64,000 nt of DNA, from NCBI GenBank assembly GCA_951406725.2, contig OX597826.1:3596001-3660000 (forward strand). The letters are read 5' to 3'. Both the position numbers and the translations under genes were made by a program. Shown in pieces: positions 3,145 through 60,774 of this stretch; positions within the stretch are counted from its first letter, which is position 1; each line of letters opens with the position of its first letter. Source of the stretch: Octopus vulgaris (taxonomy: Eukaryota). The notes beneath the pieces were generated by a model. It was not told the origin of the DNA. It searched no databases and saw only the letters and a list, made by a program, of their open reading frames with translations.

Positions 3145-4053
3145 CCCTCCCCTTTTATCTCTGTCTCTCCCTCACCAAATTTCCTAACTTTCTCCCTTTC
3201 TATTTATCGCTCCCTCTCACAATCTGCTTTATCAATCCTCTGACTATCTCTCTCGCGCTCTCTCCCTGTCTCACCTCTCTATCTTACTCTCTCTAAGCAC
3301 AAAAAGCTAAAGAGTACATTCTTTGTTGAAATCAAGAAAGAATCTATACATTTGACATCTTTTGCGTGTAAAAAAAAAATGAAAAATAAATAAAATAAAC
3401 TCACAGAACAGACAACGCACAAAAAATTTACACCATATTTCGACGAATTATCAAAGTGATACACAATAAGGAATGTAACACGTATTCTAGAGCTTTCTTT
3501 TGCACAAAATTTATTTCCTATCTCCATCTTCATCTCCATCGCTCATCTTTATCTTCACTGTTTCCTTCCGACCTCGTTCATATCTAACTATCTTGACACT
3601 ATCTTTTTAATCTCCAGCTATATCGCTCCCATTATCTATTATTATCTCTCCATTTGCTTACTCCGTTTCAATACTTCTGCTCTCCATACACACTCGCTCA
3701 CTACATTACTCTCTCCTCTATATTACTCTCTATCACTCCTACACACATACACACATGATCTAATCCTCTCTCCCATTCACTCTCTCTCTCTCATGCCGGA
3801 ATTTGTATCTCGCTCTTTCTATTTATCTCGTGACATAACGTCACAAGTACGCTTAAATTCTTCTAATTGTTCGTATGTTGACATCTATATATTCATATGG
3901 CATATACATTCGCCTACACACAGACACACACATACACACACATACACACACACACGTGTTTTTCTGAGTGACTTTGTATAAATATACATACGAGTGTGTG
4001 CAAGTATGCATACATAAATACATACATACATATATATGTATCTATATATATAT

Positions 4054-6229: not shown

Positions 6230-6592
6230 CATTCACTTGTTTCAGTAAGTGGATTGCATCCATGATGAGGTGCCACCTGGAAGGTCATAGCTGTACTACA
6301 TTTTAACACTTGGAATTTATTCTAGTAGTCATTTTGTCGAACATCTATGTTATGAAAATGGAAGCATTCTCACATTGATCATCAATCGGTGGTAGGCTGA
6401 CACACCGGAAGACATGCATGCATACACATGAACATAGAAACACACAAACACAGACATTGGACGCTGATGAAAGGAAAGAAAGAAGGAGGGTTTAACGTTT
6501 CGAACGGAGCTATACGTCAGAAACATAGGAAAAGGAAAGTTCCAAGGAAACGAAGACGGAGGAAAAAAATCGCCATCGATACACACGCGGTC

Positions 6593-6634
<42 letters not shown>

Positions 6635-13535: not shown

Positions 13536-13569
13536 TATACATGTATATATTTGTATATATATGTTTGAA

Positions 13570-13800
13570 GGTGACGAGCTGGCAGAAACGTTAGCGCGCC
13601 GGGCGAAATGCTTAGCGGTATTTCGTCTGTCGTTACGTTCTGAGTTCAAATTCCGCCGAGGTCGACTTTGCCTTCCTTCCTTTCGGGGTCGATAAATAAA
13701 GTACCAGATTCGCACTGGGGTCGATGTAATCGACTTAATCCCTTTGTCTGTCCTTGTTTGTCCCCTCTTTATTTAGCCCCTTGTTGGCAGTAAAGAAATA
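13570..13800 (+). mobile_element. SINE family B, long-tail type
   Basis: Core GCCGAGGTCGACTTTGCCTT..CCTTTCGGGGTCGATAAA..AAGTACCAG (Meta-domain-like); tail TTTGTCTGTCCTTGTTTGTCCCC...GTAAAGAAATA. Confidence 0.9.
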
Positions 13801-13940
13801 TATATATTTGTATATGGAGAAAGCCAGATCCTTATATGTATTCATACATTTCATAATACCACTATATGTGTGTTGGTATTATGTATTTTGTGTGAATTTA
13901 GCTACAATTATACACTGAGAGGTGTATATATATATATATA

Positions 13941-14515
13941 CAGATACGCAAGAAGTAAATAGACGCCTTAAGTTTTCAAAATTTCTAATCTAAGCGTCTT
14001 AGTATGTTTTCAACGGTATAGAATTTATAATGTAATTATTCTTTTTTATTCCATTATGTTATATTAAATATTTGCGAAGAGTAACCATGCCACGCACAAA
14101 AAATTCAGCAGAACTGTCAGATTTTCAAAGAGATCTTATAGGTGGGCAATCTGAGGCTGGTCTTAGCCAGTGAAAAATTACCGAAAATATTCAAATTCCT
14201 ATGCTACCGTTAATAGAATTATAGTGCAATTTAAAAGCCAAGGAAATGTATCAATAGATTCTCCTCCCGGCCAACCTGGCCCCTCGGAAAGAAAGCTTCA
14301 CTGTTTGAAGAGAATTGTGAAAAATGAACCCCATTCGAAGGCTTCTGACATTGCTAAACAGCTAGAAGTTAGTCCAAGAACGTGTGTTACATATCTGCAT
14401 AAGCTTCGGTATTATGGACGAGCAGCTAATAAAAAAAAAACCTCTCCTTCAACCAATTAACATCAAAGACAATATTTTGAAATTTAAACATGTCTATTTA
14501 CTTCCTGCATATCTG
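13941..14515 (+). mobile_element. internally deleted Tc1-like DNA transposon
   Basis: ~42-bp TIRs (CAGATACGCAAGAAGTAAATAGAC / GTCTATTTACTTCCTGCATATCTG) in TA context. Disrupted ORF from ATG 14087: MPRTKNSAELSDFQR...YATVNRII...PGQPG...VSPRT...GRAA.KKPLL (paired HTH); DDE domain deleted. Confidence 0.85.
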
Positions 14516-17967: not shown

Positions 17968-18240
17968 GATGGGAACAATGCAAACGGAAGGAAGAGTATA
18001 CTGGAAACTTTAATTATCGTTGTGATAAAGTTTCCAGTATACACTATGTTCCGTATAAATTGTTTCTACTTTACTCATCCCGCACTGAGGAATTCCTTAC
18101 TTAGATCCAGCGATGACTGAGCAATTACCGCGGATGACTCTAAGTAGCGGTAAGGAGTAAACTTGCTTCGCCGGGCATGCTACAGGAGACATAATCAAAG
18201 TGCATTTAAAAAATTAATCTAAATCTGAACTTTAATTATA
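17968..18240 (+). mobile_element. short element in (TA)n with a hairpin and a hammerhead-like motif
   Basis: 17-bp stem at 17996-18042; cccgca-CTGAGGA-attccttac...gtaaggagt-AAAC...ccggg at 18079-18175. Confidence 0.45.
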
Positions 18241-18534: not shown

Positions 18535-18748
18535 TAGTTAAAAACAAAATGAAGATAAAACACAAGAGAACACAACAACGCGGAGACGCGGTACATGCAA
18601 ATTATTAAAAGACGCTCCGGGAAGGTAAAAACTGGTATTTTACGTTTCGAGCAAAGCTGTTCGTCAGAAACAGGAGAGAGAGAGTAAAGCCCAAAAGAAG
18701 AGGAAAACGGAGGGAAAAAGATGCTAACATTCCAATGTAGTTACATTC
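18535..18748 (-). mobile_element. hammerhead-bearing short element family H1
   Basis: Homologous to 60378-60587; flanked by TA-rich repeats. Confidence 0.7.
18637..18671 (-). ncRNA. minimal type-I hammerhead ribozyme motif
   Basis: gttt-CTGACGA-acagctttgctc-GAAA-cGTA-aaat: canonical CUGANGA and GAAA boxes, ACGT palindrome, GUA triplet. Confidence 0.65.
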
Positions 18749-18810
<62 letters not shown>

Positions 18811-19259
18811 GTGTATACTTTTAGGAATATATATATGTGTATGTATATACGTGTATATAAATGTATGCATCGATGGCTGATGGATGGATTGATGGCTGTT
18901 TGTGTGTATGTATATTCGTGTGTGTTGTCTCTCTGTTTATTTCTGTTTATACATATCTAACAAAGATTACATTACAATTTCATACTCCACCACCTACAGC
19001 TTTTCTCACACTAGCTTACTTTAAATTAAATCCCATGTTCTCTCCAACCCTCATGCCAACTGCGATATGACTGAATAATTTTTCATCAGATCATAAGTGG
19101 TCATTAGACCTTATAAACTATAAATATGTGTGTGCACAAGTGTAACCTATAATTATCACTGCATGTGAATTTATAGGTAAATGTGTGTTCTTCTCTGCTT
19201 GTGTTTTTGTGAGCATCTGGCTGTATATATATATATATATATATATATATGCTTTTCAG

Positions 19260-19469
19260 CATGTGTACTTCGTAAACACCAGTCGCGTTTTTTTTCCCTC
19301 TTTCGCCCACTTCGGGATCTTTCTTCTTTCTTCCTTCTCTTATGTTTCCGACGAAGAGCTCCGCTCGAAACGTCATACCCTCCTTCTTCCATTTTCCTGA
19401 CCGCCTAATAATAATAATACTGTAATTGTTCCATGTGTTGTTGTTTTTTCTCTTTTCCCGTTTGGATTA

Positions 19470-19473
<4 letters not shown>
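19260..19473 (+). mobile_element. hammerhead-bearing short element family H1
   Basis: gttt-CCGACGA-agagctccgctc-GAAA-cGTC at 19344-19378; between (TA)n tracts. Confidence 0.75.
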
Positions 19474-19530
<57 letters not shown>

Positions 19531-19534
<4 letters not shown>

Positions 19535-19717
19535 GGGAGTTTACGAAAAAAACAAAAAACGAAGACAGGTGGTGTACAAAACAAACAGATGTATTAGTGT
19601 AACGCTCAGGAATAGAAAGTCGTTTACGTTTCGACCCTACACTCTTCTACAGAAAGGGACACAGAAAAAAAAAGGAGAGAGAAAAAATGTGTATAGTGGC
19701 TAACTATCTATCATGGC

Positions 19718-19720
<3 letters not shown>
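19531..19720 (-). mobile_element. hammerhead-like short element family H2
   Basis: Minus strand cttt-CTGTAGA-agagtgtagggtc-GAAA-cgta; second copy at 32547-32650; (TA)n on both sides. Confidence 0.6.
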
Positions 19721-19762
<42 letters not shown>

Positions 19763-32438: not shown

Positions 32439-32546
32439 TGCATCTATGTATGTATGCCTTATTTATGTGGACGCACACACACGATCTATATGTGATATAA
32501 ATATATATAATTTATATATGATATATATATATATATATATATGTTT

Positions 32547-32646
32547 CTCGAAACGTTAAAGATTTTTCACTTCCCGAGCATTATACTAGTACATCTGTTT
32601 GTTGTCGACACCGCCTGTCTACGTCTTTTGTGTCCTTGTGAATTCT

Positions 32647-32650
<4 letters not shown>
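32547..32650 (+). mobile_element. family H2 fragment beginning at the GAAACGT box
   Basis: Reverse-complement homology to 19531-19635; (TA)n flanks. Confidence 0.6.
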
Positions 32651-39890: not shown

Positions 39891-39894
<4 letters not shown>

Positions 39895-40224
39895 TAATTG
39901 TTATCGCCATATTAATATGGCATTCTTATAGATATAAGAATAATCGCTGCCGCTGGTCAGCTCCATGAGGCCACCGCCTTAAGATAGATATTGATACACG
40001 ATCTGTATCCATTATAACCTTCGAACAAGGGCTGACCTCCCTTGTTATAATGGATACAGATCGTGTATCAATAGCTATCTTAAGGCGGTGGCTTCATGGA
40101 GCTGACCAGCGGCGGCGATTATTCTTATATCTATAAGAATGCCATATTATATGGCGATAACAATTAATTTCCAGTATACGCTGTCGTAATCTCTTTTATA
40201 GAGACTTAGTAATTTTAATATTTC

Positions 40225-42254: not shown

Positions 42255-42580
42255 TATTCTATTGTGTCTGGGGAGAGTCATTTTCTTTTTGTGCCTTATT
42301 ATGTAACCACTCACCGGTAAAATTTCCAAGTTTTTCTTATTTTTATTGTCCTAAAATTTTCCTTGCGTCTTGCAACCTTTTCAATAGTTTAAAAGTATTG
42401 AAAATGTTGCAAGACGCAACGAAAGTTTTAGGAAATAAAAATAAGAAAAGAGTGGAAATTTTACCGGTGAGTGTGTTATATTATAAAGACCAAAAAGAAA
42501 ATGACTCTCCCCAGACACAACGGAATATGCTTCAACACACGAACTCATATAAAGAATCTTGCAAACCAAATCCAAAATCG
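42255..42580. repeat. asymmetric imperfect fold-back element
   Basis: Arms 42262-42386 and 42396-42520; the extension 42521-42580 has a separate homologue at 18430-18487. Confidence 0.85.
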
Positions 42581-44966: not shown

Positions 44967-45043
44967 ATATTGATAAAGCGGTAAGATTACAAAAGAAAGA
45001 AAGATACCTCGATATTATGTAAAAATATATATGTATATGTAAA

Positions 45044-48103: not shown

Positions 48104-48173
<70 letters not shown>

Positions 48174-48216
48174 CGTAACAACCGCGATAGTCAATTGATT
48201 ACAGTATATATATATA

Positions 48217-48450
48217 CTGTAATCAATTGACTATCGCGGTTGTTACGTTCAAAAACCTCCCACACAAATAATGAAAATCTGAAAATTTAAAAATAGTTAT
48301 CAGCCCAGAAATTCGGATATATGGAGGTTTCCGCGATTTAAACTTACATATATTGGCCAGAATAATCCGCGATGAACTGAGTGCGCGATAAATAAACTAC
48401 TATCTACTGGGAGCGCAATAGGTGAACCGCGATATGACGACGGATTACTA
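48217..48450. mobile_element. pogo/Tigger-like MITE
   Basis: Degenerate TIRs CTGTAATCAATTGACTATCGCGGTT / AACCGCGATATGACGACGGATTACT; TA flanks. Confidence 0.65.
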
Positions 48451-50613: not shown

Positions 50614-52506
<1,893 letters not shown>

Positions 52507-52515
52507 TATATATAT

Positions 52516-52648
<133 letters not shown>

Positions 52649-52670
52649 ATATATATGTGTGTGTGTGTGT

Positions 52671-52967
52671 GGAGGCGCAATGGCCTAGTGGTTAGGGCAG
52701 CGGACTCGCGGTCGTAGGATCGCGGTTTCGAATCCCAGACCGGGCGTTGTGAGTGTTTATTGAGCGAAAACACCTTAAAGCTCCACGAGGCTCCGGCAGG
52801 GGGTGGTGATCCCTGCTGTACTCTTTTACCACTCTTTCTACCACTCTTTCTTTTGTTGGCCTTCTCGCTTAGCCAGCGGGGTGGCGTCATTCGAAGGCTA
52901 AAACAATGCGAGCGCATTGTCACTAGCGATGTGTAACTACATCCGATGGACTGGTCGGTCACATGAT

Positions 52968-56288: not shown

Positions 56289-56592
56289 TTGATAAAACGG
56301 TAAGATAACAAAAGAAAGAAAGAGACCTCAATATTATGTAAATAGAGAAATTTATCTATACAATATGTTACATTACTCGGTAGTCAAGATAAAACTCTGA
56401 GTTTCAGATGCCGAAGTGAAATCCACAACACCATCTCTTCGGTTATCTGGCTATTTGAAAACGTTATGAAAAAACCGTAACGGTTTTTTCATAACGTTTT
56501 CAAATAGCCAGATAACCGAAGGATGGTGTTGTGGATTTCACTTCGGCATCTGAAACTCAGAGTTTTATCTTGACTACCGAGTAATGTAACAT

Positions 56593-56600
<8 letters not shown>
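56289..56600 (-). mobile_element. asymmetric fold-back element family H3 with hammerhead-like motif in both arms
   Basis: Arms 56357-56477 / 56481-56600 differ by one indel; 3-nt loop; extension 56289-56356 also present alone at 44970-45022. Confidence 0.9.
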
Positions 56601-60347: not shown

Positions 60348-60377
<30 letters not shown>

Positions 60378-60378
<1 letters not shown>

Positions 60379-60587
60379 AAGTTAATCCAAGCAAGAAAAC
60401 ACAAAAAAACACAACAACGCGAGGACGTGGAACAAATATAGTATTACTGGACGCTCAGGAAAGAAGGAAAGAAGAAGGGTGTAACGTTTCGAGCGGAGCT
60501 CTTCGTCGGAAATATAGGAGAAGGAACGATCTAGAGAAGGGAAGAGAGAGGAAAAAAATCGCCAACGGTACACACGAGGTCACATTT
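60378..60587 (-). mobile_element. hammerhead-bearing short element family H1, complete monomer
   Basis: Minus strand attt-CCGACGA-agagctccgctc-GAAA-cGTT-acac at 60479-60513; (TA)n flanks. Confidence 0.75.
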
Positions 60588-60610
60588 TATATATATATAT
60601 ATACATAAAT

Positions 60611-60774
60611 ACACATAGAATTTAGAGGATTGACCCCTAAAAGTGGACAGCTGTCCACTTTTAGTAGTCAATCCTCTAAATTTTGTATGTAAAAAACATT
60701 TTAATCTTCGGTTTTTTAAAATGTACTAGACCATTGGTTTTAATTCATTAATATCAATTTCTACCCTTATTGAA

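Follow-up and report, generated by a model that had tools for sequence, protein, structure and literature searches.

The 64-kb window of Octopus vulgaris DNA analyzed here (the whole 64,000-nucleotide stretch, from contig OX597826.1) contains a dispersed family of non-coding repeats of about 200 bp that carry a minimal type I hammerhead and mostly end at (TA)n. These repeats are probably lone pseudo-LTRs (pLTRs) of Penelope-like elements (PLEs), for which a PLE protein would have used linear RNA that had not been cut, inserting the copies into TA-rich DNA.

The initial annotation had placed four copies in the window, all with similar ends and without an ORF. Homologous copies are indeed present at all four positions, on both strands, and belong to one dispersed family; three of the four are full length, while only 141 bp remain of the copy at 6457, whose 3' end is not bounded by TA. 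The count of four was right as far as it went, but missed two copies of a sister subfamily, 19533–19721 (minus strand) and 32543–32649 (plus strand). The copies, along with one example of the likely target, are as follows.

6457..6597, minus strand: 141-bp copy with its 3' part lost (last ~60 nt and 3' TA run absent); core 6520–6494, CUGA box, A9U, mismatch at 10.1/11.1, stem I of 4 bp intact.
18537..18748, minus strand: full-length copy, 212 bp; core 18667–18641, CUGACGA, C-C mismatch at 10.1/11.1, stem I of 5 bp.
19260..19473, plus strand: full-length copy, 214 bp; core 19348–19374, CCGACGA (U4C), an intact stem II and a stem I whose second pair is broken.
19474..19531, no strand: (TA)n run, the flank common to copies 19260 and 19533.
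19533..19721, minus strand: sister-subfamily copy, 189 bp; decayed core 19652–19625 with CUGUAGA and a weak stem II.
32543..32649, plus strand: sister-subfamily copy, 107 bp, with TA on both sides; the first box of the core is absent and little of stem II is left.
60379..60587, minus strand: full-length copy, 209 bp; core 60509–60483, CCGACGA (U4C), stem II intact, stem I broken.

Together these copies make up 1.7% of the window, and the full copies (n = 4) are 189–214 bp long with 39–44% GC. The two sister copies match one another in self-BLAST, and a sequence-only model built from five copies gave eight matches: the sixth window copy, two loci outside the window (see below) and the five training copies, which match by construction. 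Copies 19260 and 19533 lie tail-to-tail across the TA run, and since the flanks of the opposite-strand neighbors at 18.5–19.7 kb are only 54–58% alike, these represent separate insertions. No Pfam family was found in ORFs over the copies, based on a scan of 50 ORFs (48 of 117 candidates plus two others). Copy 32543 begins just 5' of GAAACGU, upstream of the cut site; its start suggests that the leader was lost and that a small deletion occurred at a microhomology of CT. At this point (32543–32557) the stem I strand directly abuts the end of stem II.

A descriptor of the minimal type I form of hammerhead had seven matches in the window compared to 1.0 ± 1.0 (maximum 3) in 40 local shuffles. The four of these matches that contain GAAACGT are exactly the four copies named originally, with 0.075 expected. 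The initial annotation had allowed that the core might be no better kept than its surroundings; instead, identity between the named copies is 0.78–0.96 in the 27-nt core versus 0.56–0.81 in the 5' flank and 0.56–0.70 in the 3' flank, relative to a baseline of ~0.53 for shuffled flanks. Read on the hammerhead strand, a full copy begins with (TA)n and a pyrimidine-rich leader of 69–88 nt. One strand of stem I follows, then C(U/C)GACGA, a single unpaired A, stem II (4 bp, closed by a loop of 3 nt), GAAA, CGU-H and the second strand of stem I; a U-rich trailer of 92–104 nt leads to (TA)n again. GAAACGUH is present in all six copies and the monomer has no stem III.

This layout closely resembles the minimal hammerheads (min-HHRs) described for the pLTRs of metazoan PLEs (Cervera & De la Pena 2014, PMC4209133), whose consensus has a U-rich flank, CUGANGAH, a G10.1-C11.1 pair, a palindrome at 15.2–16.2 and a short helix I. 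At the family level, the octopus repeats have the PLE-type CUGANGA box, unpaired base, G10.1-C11.1 stem II and GAAA, and as in that report they are type I, carry the ACGU palindrome without a monomer stem III, and have an unpaired base between 9 and 10.1 along with a short helix I. The min-HHRs of that report are mostly single, heterogeneous motifs, probably from truncated PLEs, with low activity and a dimer logic; the octopus copies are likewise mostly single, heterogeneous and dispersed, with neighbors on opposite strands. The motifs differ from those of PMC4209133: helix II is 7–8 bp in Schistosoma but 4 bp with a 3-nt loop in the octopus family, and the consensus has CUGA, while a large octopus lineage has C at position 4.

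As a consensus, the core proposed in the initial annotation holds, but it is intact in no copy. All six window copies have a core or stem lesion (A9U, mismatches at 10.1/11.1, U4C, a broken stem I, or a core box that is decayed or missing), and helix I is short, with 4–5 bp in two of five window copies and breaks in the other three. Position 4 is C in two of the five window core boxes, those of copies 19260 and 60378, which confirms the two CCGA cores noted originally, although this variant is more widespread than the window showed. Rfam was uninformative for such minimal forms: it returned nothing for copy 19260 at E ≤ 10 and, for the whole window, only microRNA models and no hammerhead model among the 150 of 341 matches listed.

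Since stem III has no loop, the active site can form only by two molecules pairing through ACGU. In predicted monomer folds the core is trapped in an alternative hairpin, and the predicted active dimer lies 16–30 kcal/mol above the dimer MFE for the window copies and 12–18 kcal/mol above it for two loci outside the window, these being nearest-neighbor predictions that ignore core contacts. The hammerhead in the inserted, decayed copies is predicted to be inactive.

The two outside loci were found by a pattern scan of metagenomes, which gave two matches, both in AT-rich, animal-like contigs with the same core, U4 and unrelated flanks; no long ORF was present in either contig. The same scans had no matches in viral contigs or in GTDB genomes. 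Although these loci had been picked on core and stem II only, they have compensatory stem I pairs: 86% of cells pair, a value reached by none of 500 shuffles, and this covariation stems from the two outside loci and not from the window copies. In one of these animal-like contigs (L002), an intron-like stretch at 3590–3770 shows by eye another inverted pair, hammerhead-like but distinct from the first.

The ends of the repeats are as characteristic as their cores. In five of six copies the 3' end follows the cut site at a distance of 92–104 nt, and in five of six the 5' end falls at nearly the same point, 69–88 nt before the core; no window copy (0/6) extends into coding sequence. Five of six copies have a long leader and retain sequence on both sides of the cut site. 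Even in the sixth, the start lies upstream of that site, which implies that the template was uncut or re-joined. Ten of 12 ends are within 15 nt of (TA)≥4, compared to 4.9% of random points; no empty target sites were observed. As controls for TA proximity we used two abundant SINE-like families of the window (13 and 14 blocks, e.g., 399–785 and 13567–13806), which look like octopus repeats. Their ends, taken from self-BLAST blocks, are near TA in 4/18 and 10/24 cases (Fisher p of 0.002 and 0.03, respectively, versus the hammerhead family). The TA bias of the family is real, but is partly a property of the genome.

Similar features are known from better studied pLTRs. Adineta pLTRs are 193, 212 and 218 bp long, and solo pLTRs and mobilization in trans are reported for them (PMC3846280). 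For the anole Poseidon element PAc, reverse transcription starts 111–118 nt into the ORF and the cut site is at +26 (PMC11167929), so by subtraction the start lies 85–92 nt past the cut site. In the same system the length of the product follows where the template has its 5' end, cutting takes place in AT-rich DNA, and elements with a mutated hammerhead, whose RNA stays uncut, still insert normally (PMC11167929). The octopus repeats share with Adineta Pen and anole Poseidon pLTRs a size of ~200 bp, a 3' end ~90–100 nt beyond the cut site and AT-rich targets; in those systems pLTR sequence is sufficient in cis for mobilization (PMC3846280, PMC11167929). The half of the original proposal that saw a solo pLTR targeting TA repeats is supported by the PLE-type minimal hammerhead, the pLTR size, the PLE-like spacing between the cut site and the 3' end, and an enrichment at TA that exceeds both the background and the two control families.

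Based on these comparisons, we propose how a putative PLE partner might produce such copies. A GIY-YIG endonuclease would nick (TA)n, and reverse transcription would begin internally, ~90–105 nt past the hammerhead cut site, which would fix the 3' end. It would then continue across the hammerhead, still uncut, until it reached the point where the RNA itself begins, presumed to be 70–90 nt before the core, which would fix the 5' end. The template might be the upstream pLTR of a full PLE transcript, where one of the two start-site copies lies, or else a short RNA transcribed from a previous solo copy and used in trans. In PLEs, both the promoter and the start site are located in the pLTR (PMC2377424; PMC6765202). 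With initiation in the upstream pLTR or on the transcript of a solo copy, the expected product would be a ~200-bp copy with two fixed ends. The hammerhead would be active only as a dimer, via the ACGU palindrome, and selection would have kept it in the source elements.

Several points do not sit easily with the pLTR reading. The near-fixed 5' ends in five of six copies are unlike random 5' truncation, and the RNA 5' end invoked to explain them is an assumption. One control family is also often at TA (10/24), and the sample, six copies from one window, is small. In contrast to Adineta and anole pLTRs, the octopus copies have a near-fixed 5' end in 5/6 cases and lack any visible inverted pLTR, one-sided tail or target-site duplication in the window, with the proviso that duplications are unreadable inside (TA)n.

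The same fixed ends bear on the other half of the original proposal, in which the repeats were retrozyme-like and gave ~210-nt circles. In this scenario, they would be monomeric offspring of a non-LTR retrozyme whose tandem masters are transcribed, cut by dimeric hammerheads, circularized and reverse-transcribed by a PLE protein. The octopus family resembles metazoan non-LTR retrozymes in being non-coding, in its length (150–450 bp in retrozymes), type I hammerhead, low GC and relation to PLEs, and monomers of retrozymes are known; the ~210-bp unit and 39–44% GC are within the retrozyme range (PMC7229834). In bioRxiv 10.64898/2026.07.22.740005, retrozymes are traced back to pLTRs, monomers are evenly dispersed and arrays are confined to a few regions, so that one window could miss them. 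Both sources define non-LTR retrozymes by tandem units, and the original definition called for a canonical type I hammerhead; in PMC7229834 the canonical form is ascribed to retrozymes and the minimal form to PLEs, while the bioRxiv account admits minimal forms when tandem and reports cleavage in one of nine dimers tested. Only the minimal form is present here, and the check for tandem arrays suggested with the original proposal gave none within the window: none of the six copies is head-to-tail or over one unit long, and there is no ~210-bp period among 81 tandem-repeat rows at score ≥80. A circular template should give permuted or over-length copies, and none was seen; the ends are away from the cut site. 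Nor do whole-element folds exceed shuffles (z of −1.0 to +2.0). We therefore find the half concerning retrozyme-like circles not supported, and consider a retrozyme origin decidedly unlikely.

Two fixed ends with TA on both sides could also be left, in the manner of a solo LTR, when a full-length PLE has inserted and its two direct pLTRs recombine, and recombination or deletion has been invoked for some solo pLTRs (PMC3846280). This would need very many full-length precursors, and the 64-kb window has six solos and no piece of a PLE ORF; copy 32543, which starts at the core, would be left unexplained. We regard this origin as highly improbable. The least likely of the explanations considered is that of a SINE-like element that acquired its hammerhead from a PLE and is mobilized by another, microsatellite-targeting LINE. 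Fixed ends and high copy number are SINE-like features. Dong-R4 and Tx1 LINEs target repeats. O. vulgaris is rich in unclassified SINEs and in LINEs of both these groups (PMC13282606). Against this, the A-box is absent from all copies, only one B-box-like match was found among the six copies on both strands, no poly(A) or LINE-type tail is present besides the TA flank, and the 3' end is at a PLE-typical distance from the hammerhead.

O. vulgaris has 190 PLE families making up 6.83% of the genome, 31 of them recently active, and 336 recent PLE insertions over 1.83 Mb (PMC13282606), from which it follows that long young PLE copies exist. No PLE ORF was found among the 50 window ORFs scanned. Octopus Naiads prefer (TA)n (PMC8557442), but the 3' ends of their published consensus sequences in that source had no match in a motif search and by eye, and we rejected them as the partner because the motif is absent despite this preference. 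The putative partner is likelier to be from a canonical, hammerhead-bearing clade, e.g., Neptune or Poseidon.

Public sequencing runs from five species labels contain parts of the region, and no RNA dataset was among those listed. We aligned contigs of four runs to copy 60378, a CCGA reference, at 80% likeness. DNA runs under two species labels gave 14,163 and 10,843 matching contigs. Two runs presumed to be RNA gave 3,220 and 765, counts that are no evidence of transcription or circles. The unique flank of copy 60378 drew far fewer contigs. The family is very abundant, although summed depth does not equal copy number, and the lower depth at the 5' side cannot be read as truncation because the 5' part differs most between subfamilies. 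The majority letters in the reads restore a 4-bp stem I, GUUU/AAAC, and the loose ends listed at the 3' side run on into the same family end and then TA. All eight joints listed in the four runs are skips and none goes back, which counts against a circular template; this is a weak test, as 60360–60388 and 60578–60619, at the element ends, were masked and a further 369 rows of loose ends lie beyond the listing, and says little on tandems or on sequence before the 5' end.

At position 4, U accounts for 34%, 29%, 29% and 28% of depth in the four runs, and C for nearly all the rest (66–72%), a share that leans to C since the reference copy carries C. With C at 66–72% of depth, CCGA (C4) is clearly an amplified lineage and not the result of decay. 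We rejected an origin of U4 through CpG decay alone: compared with the 28–34% at position 4, four other core C-of-CpG positions are unchanged, change at these being below the 5% listing threshold on the hammerhead strand. The U4C change in many copies is predicted to weaken self-cutting. The same core change is known from a viroid as an infrequent variant whose in vitro activity is much reduced (Perreault et al. 2011, PMC3088659); in contrast, C4 here marks an amplified genomic lineage under at least two species labels.

One possible, though doubtful, extension of the pLTR reading sees in the CCGA lineage a SINE-like parasite that exploits a Penelope element, sustains itself and spread by detuning its own ribozyme through U4C. 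The solo pLTR would have a promoter and a reverse transcription start site and be copied in trans, with ORF-linked pLTRs keeping CUGA; U4C would be favored because cleavage would cut the template between promoter and start site. If true, this would be genome-scale selection against ribozyme activity, with a bearing on the purpose of PLE hammerheads.

Dimers of PLE hammerheads were reportedly treated by Lunse, Weinberg and Breaker in 2017. In literature searches, "hammerhead" and "U4C" occurred together only in PMC3088659, although that 2017 work or the one supplementary file of PMC4209133 that lay outside the search may list the variant. The searchable part of the PMC4209133 supplement has no octopus entry, and among the results listed by searches for hammerhead with octopus or cephalopod there was no description of this repeat family. 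Dispersed single min-HHRs from PLE ends are known in many animals, so the kind is a known one. What the family does offer is a natural set of many hammerheads, U4 as well as C4, whose ends are fixed, which could test whether an internal start of reverse transcription within the upstream pLTR is a source of solo pLTRs, and whether cleavage by the hammerhead promotes or impedes the spread of PLEs.

Other elements were noted in the window. At 50868–52684 (minus strand) there is a LINE reverse transcriptase, broken and interrupted by a run of TA, with its best named match in Argonauta hians (63% identity), and at 14167–14457 (plus strand) there is an HTH fragment similar to Tc1/mariner transposases. 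A near-perfect palindrome of 240 bp lies in (TA)n at 56290–56597, with a one-sided extension of ~68 bp that recurs at 44971–45023; its shape recalls a PLE insertion with an inverted pLTR plus tail, and no hammerhead box is evident by eye. Other long palindromic or hairpin elements are present at 42255–42530, 39892–40169, 48171–48250, 17974–18064 and 60619–60682, the last of which is matched by contigs of all four runs.
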